Shown piece by piece: positions 1,183 to 13,353 of a stretch of 44,045 bases of DNA; within the stretch, counting starts at the first letter, position 1; each line of letters starts with the position of its first letter. The translations under genes and the position numbers were made by a program. This DNA comes from Candidatus Omnitrophota bacterium (lineage in GTDB: Bacteria > Omnitrophota > Omnitrophia > Omnitrophales > Aquincolibacteriaceae): positions 1-44,045 of the forward strand of contig JBFHCO010000001.1 in NCBI GenBank assembly GCA_041585205.1, in the 5' to 3' direction. The notes beneath the pieces were generated by a model that did no database searches, had not been told where the DNA came from, and saw only the letters and a program-made list of their open reading frames with translations.

Positions 1183-4100
1183 TTACGCCGCTCTCTCCAC
1201 CGCCAGCTGAGCAGCCTGGGTATCAAGGAGAGAATTGACATAACGGAGCATGAAGGAAATGGATTCTGCAATAGCTTCCGGGAACGGAAGCTGACTGTCT
1301 GTACGGGTTTTGCTTTTAAAGGCATCGACTGTGACCAGGAGTTTTAAGGCATTCACTTGATCGGCAAAGCGTATGCCGGGGATACGGCCAAAGGAACGGG
1401 CGACCCCTTCCCGGAGCATGACGCCATATTCTTTCATTTGGGTGTCGCTTTGGAATTCAAAAGGCGAACCGATTTCAGCGACAATCAAAGGCGTTTTCCC
1501 CATGCCGTTTCGAACGAGGCGCCTTTCTTCGATGGGTTTATTGACATCATTCCAGCCGGAATCAAGCAGCATGGGATTTTCCCTTAAGAATTGAGTCGGC
1601 TCATAATCGGATTGATTTCTCCCCAAAAAGAAGGCCAAGGCCGCGCGGTCGAAGTTTCGGGAGAGGAATTCCCCCGCCGCTTGACGGGCCTCGGTTTGGC
1701 CGGCATCGGGGAGAAGGATTTCAGGGATTAAAAGTGTTCTGATTTCAGGGATGGTGCCCGGGAATAAGGGCACTCCGTGCTTTTCTATATGGGCCTCATT
1801 TAAGGCCTTCCAGTTCCCCAGAAGGGCGCTCACCCCTTGGATATCGATGCCGGTGGTGTCGATAGTCGTAACGGTCGGCTCGGCCACGAAGAAATCAACG
1901 AGTCGTGGCGCGACCGTCGCGCGAACTTTATCCAGCATCACAAACCCGCGCGTACCCATGGCAAGCATTTGTGCAAGTTGAGGTGAAAACAATTTCGCTA
2001 AAATGGAGTTGATAGTCGTCTCCTCTTCCAAAGCTTGATTGACGCGTACGGTTTGTCCCTGCAGATAGTCTTCAACTCTTCGCAATTCGGAGCGCGCCTG
2101 ATCGCCGAGCCTGCGATTCAAAGCTTCCGGACTCTCGCGCAATGAGGCGCTGATCATGCTCTCACGCGTTTCTCCCGATAAGCTGACCAAAGGAGTTCTG
2201 AGCATCGCATCCATTGCACCCGGCCGCATTTCAGAACGCTTCGTTTGACCTGTTTCCGTATCCACTTCGGCACGGTCAGGTGATTCTGTTGCGGTATCGC
2301 GCATTTCCCCCGGATCCCCCGGCGCTGTTTCCCTCGTAAACTGCCGTTCTGTGATCGGACCCATCGCGGGCCGATTACTTCTCTCAACAAGCTGTCTGAC
2401 CGCTTCTTTCGATGCCTCCCCCCGTCTTGACTGAACGATTTGAAGCCCCTCGTCGTCATCGTAAACAAACTCGATATCCCGCATGTCCATGTAATACTTT
2501 TCGATTTTTATGGCGTTTTCAATCAAGCTGTAAAATTCGATCAAATCATCAAAAGCCCATTCGCTTTGCCCCTGGCGCACCTTGACCTCGATTTCCCCCG
2601 TTTCTTTGTCGTAAATGATACGATCTGTGTCAGCGATACCGCTCACCACATCTTCACCGGGCGTGCGCGCGATATTAATAATAATCCTATTCTGATTAAG
2701 CGTATTGGGATCATTGGTCATCACGACTCCGCTTTTCTTTGATTTGATCATTTTCTGAACCACCACGGCATGATTTAATTGCTTCAAATTCAGACCATTA
2801 TTCAGACGGTACCAGATGGAATTCGGGTGATACAAAGCGGCAAAATTCAGAATAATCGCTTGCATTAAATTGCCGGATGGCACATCCGGGGTCGTAAGAT
2901 TCGCGCCGGCAAAGGGTTTGTCTGAATCCTCATCCACGGCGGAGGAGCGGACGATCACGCGTTCCGCTCCCAACTTCTCAAATTCGTCTTGAACTCCATT
3001 TTCAATCTGCGGCGGGATTTCCGTATCTAATATATCCGCGCGAATGGATTCCAGGATTCCGGCTATTTCCTTTTCAAGGGCCGGTGTTAACCGCCTGCCC
3101 GCTTCGTTGAATTTTCTTTGAATCTCATCCATGCGCCGGTCAATGGCATCTCTTAAAGCAGGGTCTAAAAGCTCTTGAAAAACATTGGTTGTCACAATGA
3201 ACCCTTGGGGAACGGGCAATCCTAAAGCGGACATCACGGCTAAATTGGCCCCTTTTCCTCCCATGGTTTGGACCAAAGCAGCCATATCAACGGCTTCCGA
3301 ATCCAGGCCTGTTTCATCCAATCGGACAAAATCGCGATCACTCAAATCGACACCGGCGGCCCGTGACGCCTGCTGCCGGACATTCCAAGCGGATTCCGCC
3401 TGCGCCTCGCGCTTCATCCAAACTTCAAGCGTTGCGTCATCAATTTGACCCGAGGGGCCTTCCGTGCCCTCCGGCTGAATGGGAAGAGCGCCTTCAGGAC
3501 CTTCCTCACCGTGAATAATCAAGCGCCCCGTTGCGCCGTCAACGGTAACTTGAGCCCCTTCCGCTAATTCGATGTCGGTCGTTTGAACCTGATAAGTTTC
3601 AACCCCGTCAACTACTTGTCGCGAACCATCAACCGCCTGGAGGCTTCTTAGATGCAATTTACCTTTCAGCCAAAAGACGTCACGCAAAATGATATGCGGA
3701 ATGCCGGCACCCCGTGCCGTCAACGCGGCATGACTTTGTTCAGCGCCTTGGGTCGTCACCATACCGATTTCCATGCCGAAAATCGGATTATCATCCGGAG
3801 TCGTGTAGGGAGCCAAATAGATATCACCGTCTTTCAAATTCTGCTTGTTATAGACAAGGCGGCCCGTTTTAACACCCGGGCTTGAAGCTAATCCCTTAAA
3901 AATTGCCTGCTCTTTCGGTAAAACACGTTCGACATCCGTTTGATTCAATACCGCTTGGGCCATACGCTGTTTGCCGGCAATTTGCACCGCATTGGCGGTG
4001 ACCGGAAAAGAACTGCCTAAACGTTCCATCACATTTTTAAGTTTAATATCTGATATCTCGAAAGCACCGGGCCTTCTTACCGTTTGTTCTGTTTGCGCAT

Positions 4101-7100
4101 ATATGATTTGACCGGAAGCAATGTCTCGAAGGACATGAACCGAAATCGTTTCACCGTTTTTATCTTTCACCAATGCGCGTTGATAAAATGCGGCGCCCAC
4201 CGTGCTGACCGTTTCAAAATTCAGAATGGATTGGATGGCATTAAGATAGGCGGCTGATTCAATTCCGTTTTTCAGCTCCTCCGAATCGCCCGGAAGATTC
4301 CGCAAACTGTTTACCATGGATAAAGCGGGATTATAATTTTCATTCTTTTCAAGAGTTCCCTTCCCGTCTTTCATGACAATGCGTATTTGTCCCCGTAAGA
4401 GCGCATTCTGGATGGCGTCATTGACGTAACGATCTATTTCTCTTTGGCCCAGCTTGCTTCCCGCAGGGATCGGATCCAGTCCCAAATCCGAAAGCATTTC
4501 GGAGACGGCCGAAGGCAGTTCACCTCGCACAAGCGCTTCGCGCTGCGCTTTGTAACTTTTAAGAGCTGATTCTGACATACGGTCGATGTTACGGCGCAGC
4601 GCCTGCAATTCATGCGACCTTAAATTCCCCAGTTTCCCGGGTCCGCTTTTCAATTCGTTATACCATATGTGCGCCCACCAGGGGACATAGCCGCCATCCT
4701 GCTCTAATGCCGCAATATAATCATCGCCGAAATTTGTGTTATCGTCCGAATTGGCAATGGCGTAATCTATATCCTTGGCCGTGAAAACTACCCACATCAT
4801 ATCTTGCAGCAATTCTGCAATGTAATTGGCCCGGTTATATCCGGGGCGAAGCGTTCCCGCATCCTTATTGAAATTGGCCCGCAAGGTTTGTTGAATTTTT
4901 GTACTGCTGGTTTCAACGGCAAAGCCCATTTGTTCAAAAGCTTTTTGAATCAGGTTGAAGCGCAATTCGTTCACATCCGTATAATTCAAATAAATCGCTC
5001 CGCCTTCATCCAAGGGCCGATCGTCAATATGAACGGTTGCGGAATGCCCCCCTAAACTTAAATCACCGATGACGTAGCCTTCATCATTGACAAAAAAGGT
5101 GTATTTCGCGTGTCCTTTTAAAACGGATTTGGGCACGCGTCTAAAAGTTGACGCTATTAAATTGGCGGCCGGATGATCCGTAATGGCCATGGTTCCATCC
5201 AGATCAATGATTTCAACGACACCCTTGCCTTCCTCGGCATCGCCGACATCCATGATAAGATCCGCGATTTGGGGAGCCTTAACGATGCCCAGCTGCGCCT
5301 TGATGCTGCTGACTTCGAATTTTTCTATCGATTTGTGTACCGCATCCAATGCTTTTTGATGAACCAGGTTAATGAAGCCATTCAAGGTCCCCATGCGGTA
5401 AATCCTTCCGATTGATTTTACTTCTTGAAGTATCGGCCTGACCAATTTCATTTCCCTGCTATAGGCCTCCATGTTAACTGCCATATCGGCAAAGCGACGC
5501 GTTTCGCGGGCGTCGCTGATGAATCGCTCGAAAGCGGATCCGTCATCATATTCGGGTGTGTACGTCAGCTCGGAGACAATGGATTGGTAACGAGCGACCA
5601 TACTGTCAATTAAATCCATAATGGCTTCCAACTCGGCCGATCTGTTAGGATGAGCCGGCAGCGAGCCGAGCCGCATTAAGATCCGATTATTGATCTCAAC
5701 CAGCTCGAAAAATTGGTTTACTTTTACTTTGATCTGACCTTTAACGCCGGGATCAGCATTTGTCTTGGGCATGCCATAAATCAACATCGTCTTGAATTCC
5801 GGATTCACTGACGTGATTTGAATATTTTCCGGCAAAAAGGATTCTAAAGCGCCGGCGGCATGCTCTGTCACACGCAGGCCCAGCTGAGAGATATCCGTTT
5901 CGCTCTCATGAACGGAAGGATCCGCTAAACTCATATTCGTCAAGTTCTGATCCGATAGATAAATGAAACGTACAGCGCTCAAGGAGTTAAAGGGACGGAT
6001 GGCGCTTTGGTATTCTGATTCTCCCAAAATGGTCCGTGCGCGTCTTAGATTTTTGATCAGATTCAAAGCAGCTTCTTTCGATACAAAAAGCGAATCCTGA
6101 AATCCGTTTAGCGGCCAATCGCGGAAATTGGAAGGTAGAAGCGATTCAAGTTCCGCCACGGTTTCTTCTCCGAGTTGATCCACGAGTCCTTCACGGGCTT
6201 TCCCGTTCGGGCCGATGCGCTGCCGGATTTGCAGCATTAAATCACTGGCAGCATCCTGCTTGAGCCCCATCAGTTGCGCCATGCGGGCCGGCGGTAAGCT
6301 CACAGCGCCCTCATCATCGTCCGCTTCCTCAAGCGGGATAGAAGGCAAATCTTCGCTTCGAGGGGAGCCGATCACGAATCCAAGATCCGGGTCGAATTCT
6401 ACGTCTCCATCTTGCTGCGATCTGATCTCCGACCGCGCGGTTCGGCGGGTTGAAATCTCTTTGGCCGTATCGGCAACCTCTTCCGGCTTCGCGGGATAAG
6501 TTTGCGGTCTTACGGTTGTCGGTAATGGCGCCTCTTTTTCGAGAGCTTGGCTGATTTCGCGCAACTCCTCATCGGTCATCACGCCTTCTTGCACACGCCG
6601 GGATTGAGACAATATGAGTTGAAGCTTCTGAACATCCTGGATTATTTCCGTCATCACCTCACGGATGTAATTGCCGTCCGGATCGGCGGGGGCGAATCGT
6701 CTGGCAGGATTCCGTTTGCCGTTTATTGCGAATTGTTCGATTTCAGTTTCTATATCGATGATTTTTTGAGACAAAGCCCTCACGGAAGACTCGAGCGCGG
6801 GCGGCAATTCGTCCAGCCCCATTTCACGCTGCATGCTTTCCGCCATGCGGGTGGCATTCACGGCATAAGCCTGATGCGCAAGCAAATCCATGCGGCTACC
6901 CTCGTCGCGTTTTCTTAAACCCGTGAGGAATTGATCGAGCGGAAAAACTTCATTGGGCATCCGCTTATGCTGATAATAGTGAAATTTCTGAACATCCCCC
7001 TTTTCATCAAGGAGGATGCTGCCGTCCGGAGCTTTGCGGTCGACGGATACGAATTCAAAGTCATCGGCGGCAATCGACATGTGCTGGCCGTTCGGCCTGA

Positions 7101-10100
7101 ACCGCTGTAACAGCAAGTGATGTGACGGTTTGATCATTCTGCCGGGAATATTCGGATCCGGCTCGGCCCGGTGGTACAATAATTCTTTCAGCATTCCCAT
7201 CATGGCGGTCAAATCCAAAATGCCCCACAGATTATGCGGACTGAGGGATCCCGCCCGCAACTGCTCGAGCAATTTCAGAAGCTGATTGCGGTCCGGAATA
7301 TGACGGCGTGATACGATCGCACTATTGATTTGCCTGATGGTTTCTCCGACATCGGATGAGATTTCCTGATCCGCATCATGATCGATGGAGCCGAGCCGTT
7401 GCGTATTTAAATCGAAAACAAAATTCTCCGCCTTGCGGTCCTGGACGTTAATTCCGACTGCGTTTGCGTCATGTACGAATTGAAGCGCCTGCGATACCGC
7501 ACTGAATGTTGAATTCCAATCAAGCTTGCCTTCGTCATGGAGGCGGCTTAAATCCTCTCCTTCCAATCCTTCAAAAAGCATCGCCGGTCTCGACATTTGC
7601 CGGCCGTCTTCCAAGGTGTAGTTGATGACAGTTAAGCCGATTGGTCTTTGGACGGGAAATGAACGGTCGGCCTGACCGGTTACGCTTTGAAGAATCCGTT
7701 CGGACACCTGATAGCGCATCAAGCTTTGTTCCATTGCCTCAATTTGTGAACTGGCTCCCAATAAAGGTACCGGACGTGCCTGTCCGTCACGCACGATGCG
7801 GTCTTCGGTGCGCGCAATTCTTAAGAATCGGTTTGTACCGCGCTGTCTGTAAACATCCGCATAACCGCCGCTAGTGACGTATTCCAATTCCACCGGAGTC
7901 GGTTGGCCGGGATAAGTCACGGCTATGATTAAGTCATCGATTAAACGTGAATTGTCCTTGGGATGCGGCCTGAAACCCGCATAATTAACCTGAGATGTAA
8001 CGGTCGCCTGACCTGACGCGATTTGAAATTGCCCGTCTTGCACCCCGAATTGAACCGGTGTCAAATCCAGCACATTGCTGGCATCATCCTCCGTGACAGG
8101 AAGTGCAATCGATTCATCCGCATCGACCCGAAGCTCAGAGCGCGTCAATGCGCTGCCCAATACAAATCCCTGATCCTCCTGAATTTCCTGCGCCTCGGTG
8201 AACTCAGCGGTGTCTTGCCTCTTTATATCCGAGCGGGCTGCGGACTGAGATATTGCGCTTTCGATTTGAGAACGGGTCTCGGCACGAGTTTGAGGTTGAG
8301 TCGCCAACGGGCCCGTGGTCACGCGGATGTCACCGATATCAACGGTTCGGACAGGTAATGCTCTCACATCCTGTTCGGGAGATTGCGTCTGAACGGCTTG
8401 ATAGGCTGCTGACAAACCCGCGACAGCGGTACCGGCATCCACACCCGCACGCTGAAGACCTGTGACAAGCGTCTGCGCGGCCGTGTCGACTCCGGGACGT
8501 GCAAGTTCGGCGCCAAATTGGCGCTCCAGCTGCGCGGCTTGCCGCTCGGTTTGAACCATCCGCTCCGCCGTGCGTATCATTTCAGGCGTCACAATCGCGG
8601 GCCTTGCTGCCGGTACAAGCTCCGCGGCCCGTCCGAGAACGGGAGCAAACCCTTCACGCGGAGGAATGATCGTGGCAAGGTCAGCAATAGCCCGTGTCTC
8701 GGCGCGCGATATGCCCGTCCGTATCGTTTGCAGGAATGTATTTGATTGGGGCGCTCCGGGATTAAGTACAACAACACCTGTCGTTTCAACCGCAGCCGGG
8801 CTCACGGCACCGGCCTGATCGATCAAGACAGAGACGTTCTCGGCGGTCAATGCTTTCCGCTCCGTTAAAAATTGAAGTCCTTCCGTAAAGGCATTAAGCT
8901 GAACCTGAAAATGATTCCATAAGTCGGAGAGAGTTTTTTCCCGGAAGGCGTCCAATTCCTCCCGGATAATGGACAGGATGTCCTCCCTTGAAGCAGAGGC
9001 TGGACCTTCCCCGCCGAAGCGGTCGCGATAAACCTTAAAAAGCAAATCTATGTACTGCGTGTACTCTTTGGCTTCCGCGATGCGGCCTTCCTCATTCAGC
9101 TTACGTATGACATTGTCGCGCCACAGCTTCAACGCCTTGCGGAAGTCAGGCTGATTGAGCTCCGCCACCAGCTTGGCCGTCGAATGCTTTGCGAAGGCGT
9201 CATAAAAACTCACATCCAAATCACGCTTGTAGGAAAGCCGGCCGTGCATGAGCTCCGGATAAAACTCATGACCTGCAAGTGAACCGATATTAGGCATGAT
9301 GACAAGATACGATACGCCTTCCGCATCGAGATTTTTTTCGAACCCTTGCGTATGAAAACCACCCGCGACCACAATGGCCGCTTTGGCTTTTTGCTGTTTG
9401 AGTGTCTCCATTAAATTCCGCTTGAAGGCTTCGTCGCGTTCAAGTGCCAAGCGGTAAAATTCCAGGGCGGATTGAAGGTGAGCCCGGGAATCTTTTAACA
9501 GATCCAAGAAGCCGTCCGGATCGTCCCGGAATTCATCAAGCTGCGCCCGCGTCACTTCCAAATTAGCCAAGTCCCCCAAAAGTCTGAGCCGTCTGTAGCG
9601 TTCGATCAACTCACGCTCTTCGGGCTTTTGCACCAGATCATTTTCGATATCCCGGAAAAGGGCTTCCAATTCGTCAAAGAGCTTGGTGCCTTTAATGCTG
9701 GCCAGTGTCTCGCTATGGCCGATCAGCCGCATCATGGCCGGCGTGAGGCGGGGCTTCAGTCCCATTTTGCGCCCGATTTCCAGCATGTATTTCAGGAACT
9801 GGCCCGGCTCCATGCCCCCGGTCACATAGGTTTGATAATTCCGGTGAAACTGCATTTCGTCTTTGATGTTCATTTTTTTCAAAAAGCGGGACTTGAATGT
9901 GGCGGCCATCTCGCGCACCTGCCCGTCCACATTCTCCTGCTGCTCGGCGGCGGATTTTTCGAATTCAAAGGAATCGTAAAGTCTGCTCAGTTGCGGGTAT
10001 TGTTTGATTTTTTCCGAGGCGCCCTCGAGGTCTCCCAGGTATTTGAGAAGCTGTAAAAGGTAAGCGTTTTCGGCCTCGAACGCTTCACGGTGGGCGTGAA

Positions 10101-10719
10101 ATTCTTTGAGTTCTTTTGAAAAGAACTTCTCGCGGCGCTTGTCCAAATCTTTTCTGAGTTCCCCGAGAGCCTGATGAACCGCTTCCTTGTCGCCGTAGGC
10201 GCGTAGATAGGCGTAGTAATTGCGTTCGTACAAATCCCAATCTTCAATTCCGTAATAGCGGCCCTCCTTTTCACTGAAAATCGCGGCCGAACCCGCGCCC
10301 GTGATCTCACCTTTTTCAAGATAGTCCTTGAAGACTTTGGATTTCACCAGCTCATCCGGAAAAGACCGGAACAGTGTTAAGTCCAGCTTCCCGGCGGCGC
10401 CTTCCAAAGCCACCAAATCAATTCCGTAATGGGTCTGCAAATATTGAATGAGCTTTTGAATGTTATGCTGGGCATCCAGCACGGCATGGGCGTTTTGAAT
10501 GAGGATCACGAAGGGGCTGCCGTTACCGTTTTGTGAAGCGACCTGAATGGATGCGAATTCGGTCGGAATTTGCACGCCGTCTGGAAACGGCACCGCGATG
10601 CCGGCTTTCGTGGACAAAGGCACCGCCGCGGGCGGCTGCGCCCATGTCGCGTTGGTTGCGGAAAATATCAAAATTGTAAGCCAGGCCAAGATTCTGAGTT
10701 TTCTGAGTGAATGAATCAT
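1183..10719 (-). CDS. Giant (3,178 aa) exported multidomain protein: TraB/TIKI-like N-module, kinase-like domain, phosphohistidine swivel plus ATP-grasp (PPDK_N-type) dikinase module, shared C-terminal tail
   Basis: Uninterrupted 3,178-codon frame with ATG at 10717-10719 and TAA at 1183-1185. The N-terminus MIHSLRKLRILAWLTILIFSATNATWA/Q is a typical Sec signal peptide (basic n-region, hydrophobic core, A-x-A-like site). The start overlaps the stop of the upstream HTH gene (ATGA). Confidence 0.9.
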   Translation of the reverse strand: MIHSLRKLRILAWLTILIFSATNATWAQPPAAVPLSTKAGIAVPFPDGVQIPTEFASIQVASQNGNGSPFVILIQNAHAVLDAQHNIQKLIQYLQTHYGIDLVALEGAAGKLDLTLFRSFPDELVKSKVFKDYLEKGEITGAGSAAIFSEKEGRYYGIEDWDLYERNYYAYLRAYGDKEAVHQALGELRKDLDKRREKFFSKELKEFHAHREAFEAENAYLLQLLKYLGDLEGASEKIKQYPQLSRLYDSFEFEKSAAEQQENVDGQVREMAATFKSRFLKKMNIKDEMQFHRNYQTYVTGGMEPGQFLKYMLEIGRKMGLKPRLTPAMMRLIGHSETLASIKGTKLFDELEALFRDIENDLVQKPEERELIERYRRLRLLGDLANLEVTRAQLDEFRDDPDGFLDLLKDSRAHLQSALEFYRLALERDEAFKRNLMETLKQQKAKAAIVVAGGFHTQGFEKNLDAEGVSYLVIMPNIGSLAGHEFYPELMHGRLSYKRDLDVSFYDAFAKHSTAKLVAELNQPDFRKALKLWRDNVIRKLNEEGRIAEAKEYTQYIDLLFKVYRDRFGGEGPASASREDILSIIREELDAFREKTLSDLWNHFQVQLNAFTEGLQFLTERKALTAENVSVLIDQAGAVSPAAVETTGVVVLNPGAPQSNTFLQTIRTGISRAETRAIADLATIIPPREGFAPVLGRAAELVPAARPAIVTPEMIRTAERMVQTERQAAQLERQFGAELARPGVDTAAQTLVTGLQRAGVDAGTAVAGLSAAYQAVQTQSPEQDVRALPVRTVDIGDIRVTTGPLATQPQTRAETRSQIESAISQSAARSDIKRQDTAEFTEAQEIQEDQGFVLGSALTRSELRVDADESIALPVTEDDASNVLDLTPVQFGVQDGQFQIASGQATVTSQVNYAGFRPHPKDNSRLIDDLIIAVTYPGQPTPVELEYVTSGGYADVYRQRGTNRFLRIARTEDRIVRDGQARPVPLLGASSQIEAMEQSLMRYQVSERILQSVTGQADRSFPVQRPIGLTVINYTLEDGRQMSRPAMLFEGLEGEDLSRLHDEGKLDWNSTFSAVSQALQFVHDANAVGINVQDRKAENFVFDLNTQRLGSIDHDADQEISSDVGETIRQINSAIVSRRHIPDRNQLLKLLEQLRAGSLSPHNLWGILDLTAMMGMLKELLYHRAEPDPNIPGRMIKPSHHLLLQRFRPNGQHMSIAADDFEFVSVDRKAPDGSILLDEKGDVQKFHYYQHKRMPNEVFPLDQFLTGLRKRDEGSRMDLLAHQAYAVNATRMAESMQREMGLDELPPALESSVRALSQKIIDIETEIEQFAINGKRNPARRFAPADPDGNYIREVMTEIIQDVQKLQLILSQSRRVQEGVMTDEELREISQALEKEAPLPTTVRPQTYPAKPEEVADTAKEISTRRTARSEIRSQQDGDVEFDPDLGFVIGSPRSEDLPSIPLEEADDDEGAVSLPPARMAQLMGLKQDAASDLMLQIRQRIGPNGKAREGLVDQLGEETVAELESLLPSNFRDWPLNGFQDSLFVSKEAALNLIKNLRRARTILGESEYQSAIRPFNSLSAVRFIYLSDQNLTNMSLADPSVHESETDISQLGLRVTEHAAGALESFLPENIQITSVNPEFKTMLIYGMPKTNADPGVKGQIKVKVNQFFELVEINNRILMRLGSLPAHPNRSAELEAIMDLIDSMVARYQSIVSELTYTPEYDDGSAFERFISDARETRRFADMAVNMEAYSREMKLVRPILQEVKSIGRIYRMGTLNGFINLVHQKALDAVHKSIEKFEVSSIKAQLGIVKAPQIADLIMDVGDAEEGKGVVEIIDLDGTMAITDHPAANLIASTFRRVPKSVLKGHAKYTFFVNDEGYVIGDLSLGGHSATVHIDDRPLDEGGAIYLNYTDVNELRFNLIQKAFEQMGFAVETSSTKIQQTLRANFNKDAGTLRPGYNRANYIAELLQDMMWVVFTAKDIDYAIANSDDNTNFGDDYIAALEQDGGYVPWWAHIWYNELKSGPGKLGNLRSHELQALRRNIDRMSESALKSYKAQREALVRGELPSAVSEMLSDLGLDPIPAGSKLGQREIDRYVNDAIQNALLRGQIRIVMKDGKGTLEKNENYNPALSMVNSLRNLPGDSEELKNGIESAAYLNAIQSILNFETVSTVGAAFYQRALVKDKNGETISVHVLRDIASGQIIYAQTEQTVRRPGAFEISDIKLKNVMERLGSSFPVTANAVQIAGKQRMAQAVLNQTDVERVLPKEQAIFKGLASSPGVKTGRLVYNKQNLKDGDIYLAPYTTPDDNPIFGMEIGMVTTQGAEQSHAALTARGAGIPHIILRDVFWLKGKLHLRSLQAVDGSRQVVDGVETYQVQTTDIELAEGAQVTVDGATGRLIIHGEEGPEGALPIQPEGTEGPSGQIDDATLEVWMKREAQAESAWNVRQQASRAAGVDLSDRDFVRLDETGLDSEAVDMAALVQTMGGKGANLAVMSALGLPVPQGFIVTTNVFQELLDPALRDAIDRRMDEIQRKFNEAGRRLTPALEKEIAGILESIRADILDTEIPPQIENGVQDEFEKLGAERVIVRSSAVDEDSDKPFAGANLTTPDVPSGNLMQAIILNFAALYHPNSIWYRLNNGLNLKQLNHAVVVQKMIKSKKSGVVMTNDPNTLNQNRIIINIARTPGEDVVSGIADTDRIIYDKETGEIEVKVRQGQSEWAFDDLIEFYSLIENAIKIEKYYMDMRDIEFVYDDDEGLQIVQSRRGEASKEAVRQLVERSNRPAMGPITERQFTRETAPGDPGEMRDTATESPDRAEVDTETGQTKRSEMRPGAMDAMLRTPLVSLSGETRESMISASLRESPEALNRRLGDQARSELRRVEDYLQGQTVRVNQALEEETTINSILAKLFSPQLAQMLAMGTRGFVMLDKVRATVAPRLVDFFVAEPTVTTIDTTGIDIQGVSALLGNWKALNEAHIEKHGVPLFPGTIPEIRTLLIPEILLPDAGQTEARQAAGEFLSRNFDRAALAFFLGRNQSDYEPTQFLRENPMLLDSGWNDVNKPIEERRLVRNGMGKTPLIVAEIGSPFEFQSDTQMKEYGVMLREGVARSFGRIPGIRFADQVNALKLLVTVDAFKSKTRTDSQLPFPEAIAESISFMLRYVNSLLDTQAAQLAVERAA
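2420..3342 (-). other. PPDK_N-type ATP-grasp nucleotide-binding domain
   Basis: LVQTMGGKGANLAVMSALGLPVPQGFIVT (GGKGANL at 3241-3261), VIVRSSAVDEDS..FAG, SGVVMTNDP, PGEDVVSG, IEFVYDDDEGLQIVQSRRG. These are hallmark motifs of the PEP synthase/PPDK N-terminal domain. Here it lies C-terminal to the swivel domain, which is a permuted order. Confidence 0.75.
3595..3897 (-). other. PEP-utilizing-enzyme mobile (phosphohistidine swivel) domain
   Basis: GLASSPGVKTGRLVY ... MVTTQGAEQSHAALTARGAGIPHII. The putative phospho-acceptor His codon is at 3730-3732. This matches the GGxxSHAAIxARExGIP signature of PPDK, PEP synthase and rifampicin phosphotransferase. Confidence 0.7.
7180..7917 (-). other. Protein-kinase-like domain
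   Basis: Gly-rich SGGYADVYR followed by FLRIAR. Catalytic-loop-like VQDRKAENFVF (DRKAEN at 7423-7440; compare HRDLKPEN). IDHD at 7375-7386 lies 19 residues after the putative catalytic Asp (compare the HRD-to-DFG spacing). Confidence 0.45.
9230..10560 (-). other. N-terminal module, copy 1 (TraB/GumN/TIKI/ChaN-superfamily-like putative metal-dependent hydrolase)
   Basis: Ordered motifs: FVILIQNAH (IQNAH at 10486-10500), LVALEGAAG, YYGIEDWDLY, ALERDEAF, VVAGGFH (GGFH at 9352-9363). The pattern of an N-terminal His, a mid Glu, ERD, then G-G/A-x-H matches my memory of the TraB/GumN/TIKI family. It is paralogous to the modules at 11359-12930 and 38690-40160. Confidence 0.5.
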
Positions 10720-11144
10720 GACGCGCCTCGCTCGCCCGCTTTCGGACTGCCATCGGATTTGCGCTCCATCACAATCCCTTCCATTTCAAACGACCGAACA
10801 TTGCCGTTTTCCTGAATTTTGAAAACGATATGAACCGAGTCCCCAACCCCCAAATGACGAAATGCCGATTCGCCGGAATTCACCAGGAGAACCGGCCTCG
10901 AGCATCCGTGAGACATGCCATTTCCGTTTGTCTCTCCCTGCGTTCCGGAATGGCTCAAAAAGGAATGAATATCATCCGCCTTGTAGCGCCAATGCTTGCC
11001 AACCTTGACACCCTTGATGCGGCCGCGCTTGCTTAAACCGTAAAGCGTGGATAAAGGAATTTTCAGATAGAGGCACACTTCCCTTGCCGTTAATACAGAC
11101 TGACTATTCATCTCGGGCATGTCGATCATTCGCCGTTTCTCCAA
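10716..11144 (-). CDS. Excisionase-family (MerR-superfamily, HTH_17-like) DNA-binding protein with a small C-terminal beta-rich domain
   Basis: LTAREVCLYLKIPLSTLYGLSKRGRIKGVKVGKHWRYKADDIHSFL fits the excisionase-type HTH. The TGA at 10716-10718 overlaps the ATG at 10717-10719 of the 3,178-aa ORF. The track start is a TTG at 11142-11144. An ATG at 11127-11129 with GGAG 9 nt upstream is the more likely start. Confidence 0.75.
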   Translation of the reverse strand: MEKRRMIDMPEMNSQSVLTAREVCLYLKIPLSTLYGLSKRGRIKGVKVGKHWRYKADDIHSFLSHSGTQGETNGNGMSHGCSRPVLLVNSGESAFRHLGVGDSVHIVFKIQENGNVRSFEMEGIVMERKSDGSPKAGERGAS

Positions 11145-11358: not shown

Positions 11359-12930
11359 TTACGTTGCAGATTCAAGATTTGCGGCTTCGGGGCTATCCCC
11401 CATATGAAGGCGTGTTGTGCGGAACCAGGTGCTGCCGTCGCCCCATTTCTCGCGTAAAACTTCGAAATAGGGGCTCGGTTCCTGTCTGATTTGAAATTTC
11501 GGAATGATGCTCAGGATGGATATTTTTTTTGCCTCAAATTGCTTGATCAGATCTTTGGCGTGAAAACCGCCGATCACGAGGGCATAGATTTTCTTCTTAT
11601 GCATGCGCATGAACAGAAGCGAATTTTCCACAATGGATTCTTCGCGCTGCCTGGCTAATTCATAGATTTGAACGGCGCTTTTCACATAGGCTTGAAGCTC
11701 CTGAAATGATTCCTTATCGTCAAGCAAAGCGCGTAAATCTTCCCGCTTCCAGACCGGCTCGAAATTATTAAATTCGGCTTCATCCCTGGGTTCCCAGCGG
11801 ATATCAAATAATTTTCTGACCAAATGCGCATAGTCCGACAGATTGGCGACAATTTTTGCATCATGATCCGGCAGCTCCTGATCCCTGATGGTTTTATAGA
11901 GTTTCTCGGCCTCTGCGTACGTCGCCTCCAAATCCGTCCCGATCAAGCTCTGGATCACCAGCAAAGCCCGCTCAATTTCTGTCACGGAATATTTTCCGTA
12001 GGCATCCGGATTTTCATTTTTAAGCCGCATCAGCGTTTCCAGAACCGCGGCCTCCCCTTCCGTTCCGGGGATCATGCGCGCCGCGTGCAAGGGGTAGAGA
12101 TCTTCCTCTGACAGCGTACGCGTGAGCACGCGCAGCAATTCCTTCTTTTCCAATTCCAGCTTACTCTGATCCAACGCCTTATTTTTGGCCTGTATCTCAT
12201 TCCACGCTTCCATATGCAGCGTTTGTTCCGCCGCGATACCAAGCGCTTCGGCGCGGCGCGTGAGCTCATCAAGATATTTGAACAACACAGAAACATTTTG
12301 ATCTGCCTGCCGACGCAGTTCGGAAAGCGCTTCCAGGGCCGGCGGGTAAAACCGAGTTCGAAGTTCGGACAGATTTTTTTCAAGCGTCTCAAGCGTGGCC
12401 AGCGCGGTTTTTTGGTTTCCGTAAAAATCGAGATAGGCCTGCATGTTTTGACTGTAAAGGACGGGATCTTCGACGCCCCACAATTTCAGATCCTGATCCT
12501 CGAGCGTCAGATCCAAAAACTCCTCAGCTGATAATTTGCCTTGCTTCAAGTAGCGCAGCGCCACGGTTTGCAAATGACGGGGGTCCACACCATTCCGCAT
12601 ATAGGACAGGTCGATATTGCCGGATCCGCCCTCCGCCATGACATACTCCAATTGATAATATTGGACGAGGTAGCGGAGGATTTCGATCATGCTTAGCTGG
12701 GCTTCGTAGCGCGCATGCGCGTCTTGAATGATCACGAGCACGGGCGCCTCAGAATCCCCTGATTCAACCGTGCGCTCCGTGATGGCCAAATGGGAAGGAA
12801 TGGTGACGGGAATGGGGTCCGGATCGGCTGCCGCAGAGCCTATCATGATCTGCGCCATGAAGCCCGCGGCAATCGGGAGCAAAAGCGTTCGAAACAGCCT
12901 GCATTTATTATGAGATGTCCGGTCCGCCAT
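11359..12930 (-). CDS. Exported stand-alone copy of the TraB/TIKI-like N-module (523 aa from the ATG)
   Basis: ATG at 12928-12930 with AAGGTG 7 nt upstream (the track uses a TTG one codon earlier). Signal peptide ...LLLPIAAGFMAQIMIGSAAA/D. Motifs VLVIIQDAH (12715-12729), VMAEGGSG, LWGVEDPVLY, ARQREES, LVIGGFH (11560-11571) are colinear with the N-termini of both giant ORFs. Confidence 0.85.
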   Translation of the reverse strand: MADRTSHNKCRLFRTLLLPIAAGFMAQIMIGSAAADPDPIPVTIPSHLAITERTVESGDSEAPVLVIIQDAHARYEAQLSMIEILRYLVQYYQLEYVMAEGGSGNIDLSYMRNGVDPRHLQTVALRYLKQGKLSAEEFLDLTLEDQDLKLWGVEDPVLYSQNMQAYLDFYGNQKTALATLETLEKNLSELRTRFYPPALEALSELRRQADQNVSVLFKYLDELTRRAEALGIAAEQTLHMEAWNEIQAKNKALDQSKLELEKKELLRVLTRTLSEEDLYPLHAARMIPGTEGEAAVLETLMRLKNENPDAYGKYSVTEIERALLVIQSLIGTDLEATYAEAEKLYKTIRDQELPDHDAKIVANLSDYAHLVRKLFDIRWEPRDEAEFNNFEPVWKREDLRALLDDKESFQELQAYVKSAVQIYELARQREESIVENSLLFMRMHKKKIYALVIGGFHAKDLIKQFEAKKISILSIIPKFQIRQEPSPYFEVLREKWGDGSTWFRTTRLHMGDSPEAANLESAT

Positions 12931-12955
12931 CAATAATCACCTTAAGCTAAATAAT

Positions 12956-12984: not shown

Positions 12985-13031
12985 TAATTAGACGAGCCGA
13001 TCAAGGAGGCTATTCGAATCAAAAAGAAACG

Positions 13032-13105
13032 CGCCCGGGACGGGACTTGAACCCGCAACACCCAGATCGACAATCTGGTACTCTAACCAATTGAGCTACC
13101 CGGGC
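13032..13105 (-). tRNA. tRNA-Asp (anticodon GTC), no encoded CCA
   Basis: The reverse complement folds as a cloverleaf. Acceptor stem GCCCGGG/CCCGGGC, D arm GCTC-AATTGGTTA-GAGT, anticodon arm CCAGA-TTGTCGA-TCTGG (GTC at positions 34-36). Variable loop GTGTT, T arm GCGGG-TTCAAGT-CCCGT, discriminator G. Confidence 0.9.
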
Positions 13106-13199: not shown

Positions 13200-13319
13200 C
13201 ACTCGCACTCTTGTGCGAGTGCGGCTCGCACCTAATCGCCATGATTAGGTACGTCATCGCGACAGCCTTTGACGGCTGTCTGCGATGGCGGCGGGAGCTT
13301 GAGGCTCCCGTCCGGGCCG
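13200..13319 (+). repeat. Multi-hairpin intergenic element, copy 1 (possible structured RNA; strand call tentative)
   Basis: Positions 13230-13319 align without gaps to 40619-40708, with about 76 of 90 positions identical by eye. Hairpins: cactcgcac/gtgcgagtg (13200-13221), the overlapping alternative gtgcgag/ctcgcac (13213-13231), cctaatc/gattagg, cgtcatcgc/gcgatggcg enclosing gacagcc/ggctgtc, and ggcgggagc/gctcccgtc. It lies between the giant-gene terminator and the tRNA promoter. Confidence 0.8.
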
Positions 13320-13320
13320 A

Positions 13321-13353
13321 CAAAAAAAGCCCCCCGGATTAAATCCGGGGGGC
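13321..13353 (-). terminator. Rho-independent terminator of the 8,957-aa ORF
   Basis: On the minus strand: GCCCCCCGGA-TTTAA-TCCGGGGGGC (a perfect 10-bp GC-rich stem, 13329-13353) followed by TTTTTTT (13322-13328). It starts 36 nt after the TAA stop. Confidence 0.85.

Follow-up and report, generated by a model that had tools for sequence, protein, structure and literature searches.

The 44,045-nt window (the whole stretch of DNA analyzed here) carries two copies, designated A and B, of a genuine, non-chance structured repeat, and the family to which they belong is probably a new one of small, non-coding, modular, structured, and non-autonomous intergenic repeats of the MITE/ERIC/BOX kind. As found, the family comprises seven copies on five contigs with unrelated flanks, with homology ending sharply at the element ends, and is scattered over unrelated positions of two or more uncultured genomes. 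Its conserved core of ∼120 nt consists of a 5′ hairpin, a fully paired four-way junction, and a 3′ hairpin module; the element is small and non-coding, with a length of 181 to 327 nt in a probable relative of the window's organism and a core of about 120 to 160 nt in the window. The unsupported idea of giant genes bracketed by a dedicated regulatory RNA is replaced by a documented new repeat family, which sits in a poorly sampled bacterial lineage.

Every large ORF (at least 100 aa) taken as a gene in the window is carried by the minus strand, and the element copies fill two of the four non-coding gaps. Copy A (∼13200 to 13319) is located between the tRNA-Asp gene and the 3′ end of the 8957-aa gene, and copy B (∼40588 to 40708) is located between the 5′ end of the 8957-aa gene and the 3′ end of the next gene. 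The features surrounding the two copies are the following:

1183-10719, minus strand: gene for a 3178-aa protein with PPDK_N/PEP-utilizers domains
10716-11144, minus strand: HTH_17 gene of excisionase type, 142 aa, with a 4-nt overlap with the start of the 3178-aa gene
11359-12933, minus strand: gene for a 524-aa protein
13031-13105: tRNA-Asp, with a promoter-like site
13321-13353, minus strand: GC hairpin and T-run directly 3′ of copy A (terminator scan)
13390-40263, minus strand: gene for an 8957-aa protein (26.9 kb) with HEAT repeats and an OEP domain
40711-40728, strand unassigned: small palindrome TTTTTCGGCGCCGAAAAA directly 3′ of copy B (sequence, and blastn self-inverted match 40706-40734)
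40828 to contig end, minus strand: further large gene, at least 1065 aa

The giant proteins encoded at 13390-40263 and 1183-10719 join HEAT_2 repeats, an OEP domain, and PPDK_N/PEP-utilizer domains, and both HEAT_2 and PPDK_N rank with the most frequent domains of the giant proteins reported in Omnitrophota as "Archaeovorin" (bioRxiv 10.1101/2023.11.21.568195), so that an origin of the contig in this phylum is possible. An N-terminal domain of ∼500 aa, located after a signal-peptide-like start, is common to the 3178-, 524-, and 8957-aa proteins, with invariant motifs including IQ.AH, E.G, Y..A..R, and GGFH; neither Pfam nor NCBIfam contained a match to it, and 5.8 billion database proteins yielded just two relatives. 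The HTH model of the MADS1 defence system matched the 142-aa HTH_17 protein weakly, below threshold. The gap of copy B contains two additional long inverted repeats (40476-40510 and 40749-40823), one with 16-nt arms (CCATCGGGGTCAGGTA/TACCTGTCCCCGGTGG) and the other, which immediately follows the stop codon that ends the gene at 40828, with 23-nt arms that are 83% complementary. The GC skew of the plus strand was negative in all 4-kb bins of the window, which makes up an entire public contig.

Comparison of copies A and B revealed that positions 13230-13319 and 40619-40708, previously judged by eye to align without gaps at roughly 85% identity, share 76 of 90 bases (84.4%) in a gap-free alignment, and blastn inside the window aligned A with B at 80% over 121 nt (E = 4e-26). 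No third copy was detected in the window, either by blastn or by a covariance-model search with filters off. Each copy was predicted to fold into a 9-bp 5′ hairpin followed by a closed, fully paired four-way junction, in which a closing stem of 6 to 7 bp and three arms of 8 to 11, ∼16, and 8 to 9 bp leave 0 to 1 unpaired bases at the junction. The fold of copy A reached −82.6 kcal/mol (z = −9.4) and that of copy B −69.0 kcal/mol (z = −8.5), and the folding energies of A and B on both strands were far below those of shuffled controls (z from −7.9 to −9.9). The helices are arranged as follows:

13200-13221, plus strand: copy A 5′ hairpin (HP1), CACTCGCAC-TCTT-GTGCGAGTG (RNAfold, inverted-repeat scan)
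13222-13319, plus strand: copy A four-way-junction core (RNAfold, covariance model R1)
13222-13228 and 13313-13319, plus strand: copy A closing stem
13230-13250, plus strand: copy A arm 1 (ACCTAATC/GATTAGGT)
13252-13290, plus strand: copy A arm 2
13291-13311, plus strand: copy A arm 3
40588-40609, plus strand: copy B 5′ hairpin (HP1), TACCCGCAC-CAAT-GTGTGGGTA (RNAfold, A/B comparison)
40610-40708, plus strand: copy B four-way-junction core (RNAfold, covariance model R1)
40610-40615 and 40703-40708, plus strand: copy B closing stem
about 40618-40640, plus strand: copy B arm 1
40641-40679, plus strand: copy B arm 2
40680-40700, plus strand: copy B arm 3

The differences between A and B mostly preserve the pairing of this fold. 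Among 27 differences, 16 fell within the 96 paired columns (15 of them transitions) and 11 within the 27 unpaired columns, indicating that loops change faster than stems (41% versus 17% of columns). Five double compensatory changes were found and 46 of the 48 pairs were kept in B, a retention that was matched in only 0.6% of the trials of a neutral simulation with the same transition bias (P = 0.006); such retention in a pair of copies that have diverged by 20% argues for continuing selection on the fold and is not predicted by simple junk decay. The original prediction that several differences preserve pairing thus agrees with the neutral simulation as well as with the pair statistics of all seven copies given below. 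The compensatory changes that it quoted are present (in arm 3, A:T replaces G:C, and in arm 2, T:A replaces C:G), its reading of arm 3 in copy B as gctTtcgtc has to be corrected to gctCTcgtc, and the first hairpins, described there as entirely different, turned out to be homologous in A and B, with 9 of 22 positions differing (five stem positions and all four loop positions, including two double compensatory changes). The proposal of mutually exclusive alternative folds did not hold beyond one copy, as the alternative helix was significant in copy A alone (−14.1 kcal/mol, P = 0.0025), compared with P values of 0.33 to 0.62 in copy B, L024, and the diverged relative x1. A switch of the riboswitch/attenuator type is consequently unsupported, the alternative pairing not being conserved across the members compared.

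To extend the family, for which the original prediction had suggested a search, an exact 17-mer (GATTAGGTACGTCATCG) from the invariant arm-1/arm-2 junction was used as the query, and an exact match was demanded. The scan of 596 Gb of GTDB species representatives yielded only eight chance matches of 17 to 21 nt, the scan of viral contigs yielded zero matches, and blastn against plasmids and phages detected no copy. In JGI metagenomes, 19 matches were obtained, five of which were true copies, all in metagenome 3300031576 (L018, L019, L024, and two on L022, designated L022a and L022b). The same metagenome also holds the sole JGI homologue of the 524-aa protein of the window, with 42% identity, and its host is on that account probably a relative of the window's organism. 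At the loci of the only relatives of the 524-aa protein (P0002 and P0003; L009 and L029), the element was absent. A covariance model (R1) built on all seven copies scored them at 79 to 139 bits on the plus strand, compared with 20 to 44 bits on the reverse strands (copy A, 134.9 versus 44 bits; copy B, 122.4 versus 29.6 bits), and produced no additional match in the window or L009, and none with E ≤ 0.01 across 98 kb of unrelated loci. No further copies were recovered with a profile of the minus-strand frame that is open across the core. Weak R1 matches (23 to 26 bits) clustered beside the two L022 copies:

L022:778-892, plus strand: diverged family member with an extended first hairpin
L022:10427-10535, plus strand: extra module inside L022b
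L022:458-587, minus strand: run of hairpins just upstream of tRNA-Arg

The relative at L022:778-892 carries compensatory changes even in arm 1, which is otherwise invariant.

With seven copies aligned, the 39 junction pairs were paired in 93.4% of cases, compared with 24 to 56% when partners were slid by one to three columns, and 11 pairs had changed on both sides, a number reached by none of 500 shuffles. Arm 1 (ACCTAATC/GATTAGGT) was without any variation among the seven copies, and a 40-nt block (ACCTAATC..ATGATTAGGTACGTCATCG) was invariant between the two organisms; the 5′ hairpin and a 3′ hairpin keep constant positions, with sequences that differ from group to group. The excess of G-U over A-C pairs noted earlier amounted to about 6:1 in A and B, and family-wide, G-U occurred in seven pair columns and A-C (G-U on the other strand) in one. 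Moreover, the plus-strand fold was 2.8 to 8.9 kcal/mol more stable than the minus-strand fold in all six copies tested. Of the plus-strand RNA originally proposed, the strand preference was borne out by both the pair columns and the energies. The scans showed no plus-strand promoter-like site upstream of A or B and no plus-strand terminator following any of the copies that they covered. The preference for the plus strand could also be mimicked by a C-to-T mutation pressure that is strand-biased.

The ends of the element were recognizable in three of the metagenome copies, written here with their flanking triplets:

L022a, 1043-1223, 181 nt: TTA-CAGGACGCCAT...ATGGCGTCCCG-TTA
L024, 1020-1208, 189 nt: TAA-CCGGACGCCAT...ATGGCGGCCCG-TAA
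L022b, 10545 to 10219, 327 nt: TAA-CCGGACGCCGC...ATGGCGCCCCC-TAA

Termini were homologous (CCGGACGCCAT...ATGGCGKCCCG) in all three metagenome copies with both ends available, and a 3-bp TWA direct duplication (TTA, TAA, and TAA) flanks all three full-length metagenome copies. A scan for 11-nt inverted termini with a 3-bp flanking direct repeat, for which a chance solution arises in 3 to 5% of shuffles per locus, returned a single solution in L022a and a single one in L024, the two positions being homologous; the ends of L022b were found separately from that scan and are of the same kind. Terminal complementarity was 10/11 in L022a, 9/11 in L024, and 6/11 in L022b. Modularity was evident from an extra ∼110-nt module of hairpins in L022b and a 59-nt insertion exactly at the apex (hairpin loop) of arm 3 in L019, with the same insertion start in L018 followed by unrelated DNA and a missing 3′ part. 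For A and B, an ungapped scan allowing up to 4/12 mismatches detected no terminal inverted repeats or duplications, and a gapped scan for their ends performed no better than shuffles (45/200 and 167/200), on which ground an end candidate picked by eye for copy B (TTA-CGAGG...ACGCG-TTA) was rejected. Because ends and duplications are undetectable there, it is the core that places A and B in the family, and the two may be old relics or a core-only form. In ∼100 kb of related DNA, neither an autonomous IS with matching (CCGGACGCC-type) ends nor a transposase gene was found. A second dispersed, MITE-like repeat of ∼135 nt, unrelated to the element, occurs at L018:5417-5550 and L024:7921-8053, with terminal inverted repeats (GAGTTCTGCATAT.../...ACAGAACTC) and internal hairpins (CCCTCTCCCC/GGGGAGAGGG and CCTTCTCCCCC/GGGGGAGAAGG), and in L018 it is apparently flanked by a GGTTGTAA direct repeat; its presence on the same contigs suggests that the metagenome genome hosts such elements.

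The 3′ hairpin module deserves separate consideration in the window. The hairpin at 13321-13353 has an 11-bp stem with nine GC pairs and a TTTTTTT tail on the minus strand in the terminator scan, and by these features it is predicted to be the canonical intrinsic terminator of the 8957-aa gene on that strand. The GC hairpin flanked by A/T runs that was originally noted is thus present beside A, as a minus-strand rather than a plus-strand terminator. Since this hairpin occupies the position of the internal 3′ hairpin module of the metagenome copies, it may be part of the element in copy A. The palindrome at 40711-40728 also matches the 3′ hairpin module of the other copies in relative position, and it gave no terminator score on either strand; features of a rho-independent terminator were hence confined to the hairpin beside copy A (minus strand) and not shared by the equivalent hairpin at B. 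In the metagenome copies, no U-run follows the equivalent 3′ hairpin.

The metagenome copies lie close to the ends of genes, with insertion points 12 to 30 nt from stop codons or overlapping a gene end in the four with known ends:

L022a: 17 nt past the stop of a Rieske/FMN-reductase gene
L022b: begins 12 nt beyond a Fic gene
L024: overlap with the final codons of a gene for a RES domain, followed by a RelA_SpoT gene
L018: 30 nt after a lipoprotein gene

Toxin-type genes (RES, RelA_SpoT small synthetase, Fic/DOC, and Gp49/HigB-like; L024:146-2288, L022:10561-10959, and L019:1128-1487) adjoin several metagenome copies, which suggests that the repeats gather in variable, accessory regions. The data do not support a functional link of the element with the 26.9-kb gene, nor with large genes generally, given that the five further copies all adjoin ordinary-sized genes. 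In addition, the R1 search found no copy in the 3′ flank (1-1182) of the 3178-aa gene, and the C-terminal 499 aa of the two genes beside A and B showed no relation, so that, together with the ordinary neighbors in the metagenome, no rule of one element per large gene emerges. The unrelated C-termini also ruled out that the two copies are a by-product of gene duplication. The related copies fit a REP/MITE-like scatter regardless of the giant genes, which the original prediction had named as grounds for its own refutation, although at a copy number so far low rather than high.

The account that we favor is that of a mobile-type repeat. The family would have spread in trans through the DDE-type transposase of a TWA-duplicating IS (IS5/PIF-Harbinger-like), and the junction fold would be kept by selection on propagating element lineages, acting either on the folded single strand during mobilization or, alternatively, on an RNA structure that is co-transcribed at gene 3′ ends and blocks exonucleases or assists termination. 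Copies A and B would be old insertions or relics with decayed ends, and their flanking of the 26.9-kb gene would merely reflect the non-coding gaps of the contig next to gene 3′ ends. As the terminator of the giant gene occupies the 3′ hairpin position of copy A, the element there may supply or abut that terminator. Features of this sort have precedents: prokaryotic MITEs, ERIC, BOX/RUP/SPRITE, and QMITE2 have terminal repeats, short duplications, gain and loss of modules, and nesting, and sites just after stop codons are known for prokaryotic MITEs and related repeats (PMC10969869). For MITEs, locations in 3′ UTRs, insertion of one into another, and effects exerted via RNA structure are also documented (PMC10969869). 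Several points count against the MITE reading: A and B have no recognizable ends or duplications; the exact-17-mer search brought the family to seven copies, which could be low for a transposon; the ∼100 kb of related DNA showed no partner IS or transposase gene; the termini could instead form an outer RNA helix; and the pairs kept between A and B argue for continuing selection on the fold. The MITE reading and an independent plus-strand RNA function are mutually compatible, and a role of the element as RNA is possible. It is rather unlikely, by our estimate, that the core is a working single-stranded device (a plus-strand RNA or a DNA strand recognized by a recombinase) carried by a MITE shell; as an RNA, such a device could regulate in antisense or at 3′ ends, or could provide an enzyme of a mobile element with a scaffold/guide, and on this reading it would be conserved in an Omnitrophota-like lineage with giant genes.

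The main rival of the mobile-repeat reading, although an unlikely one, is a plus-strand RNA function, in which the copies are functional ncRNAs (sRNA genes or cis-antisense regulators), the junction is what works, the termini form an outer helix, and the flanking triplets arose by chance. Strong covariation, loops that evolve faster than stems, the preference for the plus strand (7:1 in G-U/A-C columns and by energy in every copy tested), and the 40-nt block invariant across two organisms are all expected of such RNAs, and in L022a and L024, the complementary termini would join to close the entire structure. Yet homology among the metagenome copies begins only ∼20 nt before the first hairpin, which points to a repeated unit without an upstream promoter, and the scans show neither a plus-strand promoter at A/B nor a plus-strand terminator at the copies scanned. 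Pairing involves almost all bases, so that a conserved single-stranded core is lacking; some copies are truncated, others interrupted or lengthened by modules; identical triplets flank three of three full-length copies; and all large ORFs (at least 100 aa) in the window are on the other strand. Selection in place as a cis element of minus-strand mRNAs, i.e., as a 3′-UTR stabilizer/insulator or as a leader for the next gene or tRNA, would explain why both window copies are situated just past the 3′ end of a minus-strand gene and why copy A directly follows a terminator and precedes the promoter-like site of tRNA-Asp. This is improbable, however, given that the strand that would be transcribed in the window pairs worse, with G-U turned into A-C mismatches and arm 2 of copy B disrupted, even though the minus strand still folds very stably (z about −8 to −10). 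The four metagenome copies with a known upstream gene do lie downstream of a co-directional gene (tentatively for L022a, via an unconfirmed ORF), but this makes the orientation mixed, sense in the metagenome copies and antisense in the window; furthermore, a strong terminator precedes copy A, and the 3′ end of the 3178-aa gene lacks a copy.

A third possibility, which we regard as very improbable, is a DNA-level site, i.e., a folded single-stranded or cruciform target of a recombinase or HUH enzyme, with attC-like sites, REP/RAYT-like sites, an IS200/IS605 end, an oriT, and an att site near a tRNA as candidates. Strand-specific pairing is equally expected for folded single-stranded DNA sites, the invariant arm 1 and arm 2 base suggest sequence-specific recognition by a protein, and hairpin apexes have taken insertions; the window also has a tRNA gene and an HTH gene of excisionase type close by. 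None of the scanned loci, however, contained an integrase, RAYT, TnpA/TnpB, or relaxase gene, and neither correctly ordered attC core sites nor a same-orientation array was seen. Elements of the IS200/IS605 type make no target duplication, whereas the metagenome copies have one, and the CGTC motif is paired rather than an unpaired tag as in CGTC REPs (PMC3733652). The GC skew weakly suggests that, in the window, the plus strand does not act as template for the lagging strand, an argument on replication strands that was dropped as too indirect.

Assignment to known classes was also attempted. No RNA family had been recognized originally, and Rfam 15 indeed gives no match in searches of both intergenic regions (gathering score and E ≤ 10) or of four related loci (gathering score; tRNAs only). 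At E ≤ 0.1, no family lay on the element at either window copy, and the best sub-threshold Rfam match overlapping it scored 19 bits against a threshold of 60. A small protein was rejected: the plus-strand frame is open in A and B (43 to 48 aa), yet in the metagenome copies it runs for just 15 codons before a stop, and it has no ribosome-binding site, an ATG buried in a stem, and non-synonymous changes. Protein searches with translated frames across the core returned nothing. A tRNA-like reading was rejected as well, with ARAGORN finding true tRNAs only. An integron attC site was discarded since the core sites (RYYYAAC...GTTRRRY) were absent or misordered by eye and Pfam scans turned up no integrase; the two copies on L022 lie 9 kb apart in inverted orientation. 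REPs are characterized by a single 20- to 40-bp palindrome, an unpaired GTAG/CGTC tag, an 8- to 9-bp stem, and a high copy number (PMC3733652), and a CGTC-REP was rejected on the grounds that CGTC is paired within arm 2, that four or five different hairpins are present, and that there are two copies in 44 kb.

The family represents a clean example of a mobile-type repeat with an internal multi-branch fold kept by compensatory change on one strand, and it offers a test case for the form, RNA or folded DNA, in which MITE cores undergo selection. In these MAGs, it could also be used as a marker for typing strains and checking assemblies. If the 3′ module of copy A is indeed the terminator of the giant gene, a 27-kb gene would have been supplied with its terminator by such an element.

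Compared with known systems, the element shares with Rfam 15 families a multi-stem fold with covariation and a typical small-ncRNA size. Duplications of 3 bp of the TWA/TNA type mark Tourist-type MITEs and the IS5 and PIF-Harbinger groups, and the full-length metagenome copies resemble them in their 3-bp TTA/TAA duplication and, for L022a and L024, in short terminal inverted repeats. The element differs in that no autonomous partner was found, in that its termini match no IS tested, and in that its internal structure is conserved well past the termini, which is atypical of this group. With REP/BIME repeats, it has in common GC-rich hairpins after genes, which are often between convergent genes and are thought to act as RNA hairpins, and, with CGTC REPs in particular, a CGTC after arm 1 and an 8-bp stem with a 4- to 5-nt loop (PMC3733652). 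Unlike REP/BIME, the element is ∼120 to 190 nt long, comprises four or five different hairpins, has its CGTC paired in arm 2, and is apparently low-copy. The pneumococcal BOX/RUP/SPRITE repeats are likewise modular, with stable predicted folds, clustered intergenic locations, insertion into one another, and some terminator-like modules (PMC10969869, PMC3049150). Their sequences and modules are unrelated to those of the element, BOX exceeds 100 copies per genome compared with the seven copies found here, and BOX is built from repeated boxB units, whereas the element has a single conserved multi-branch core fold.

The enterobacterial ERIC/IRU, a 127-bp repeat of MITE type, is similar to the element in being small, non-coding, intergenic, near gene 3′ ends, in either orientation, and strongly structured, with a low-to-moderate, lineage-variable copy number. 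Longer ERIC variants reportedly result from internal insertions at fixed sites (Sharp and Leach in 1996 and Wilson and Sharp in 2006 are said to have described them). The two share no sequence similarity and belong to different host lineages, and the 3-bp TWA duplication distinguishes the window-related family. ERIC copies inside transcripts alter mRNA fate (PMC10969869). ERIC forms one long imperfect hairpin, whereas the element is composed of a hairpin, a four-way junction, and a further hairpin.
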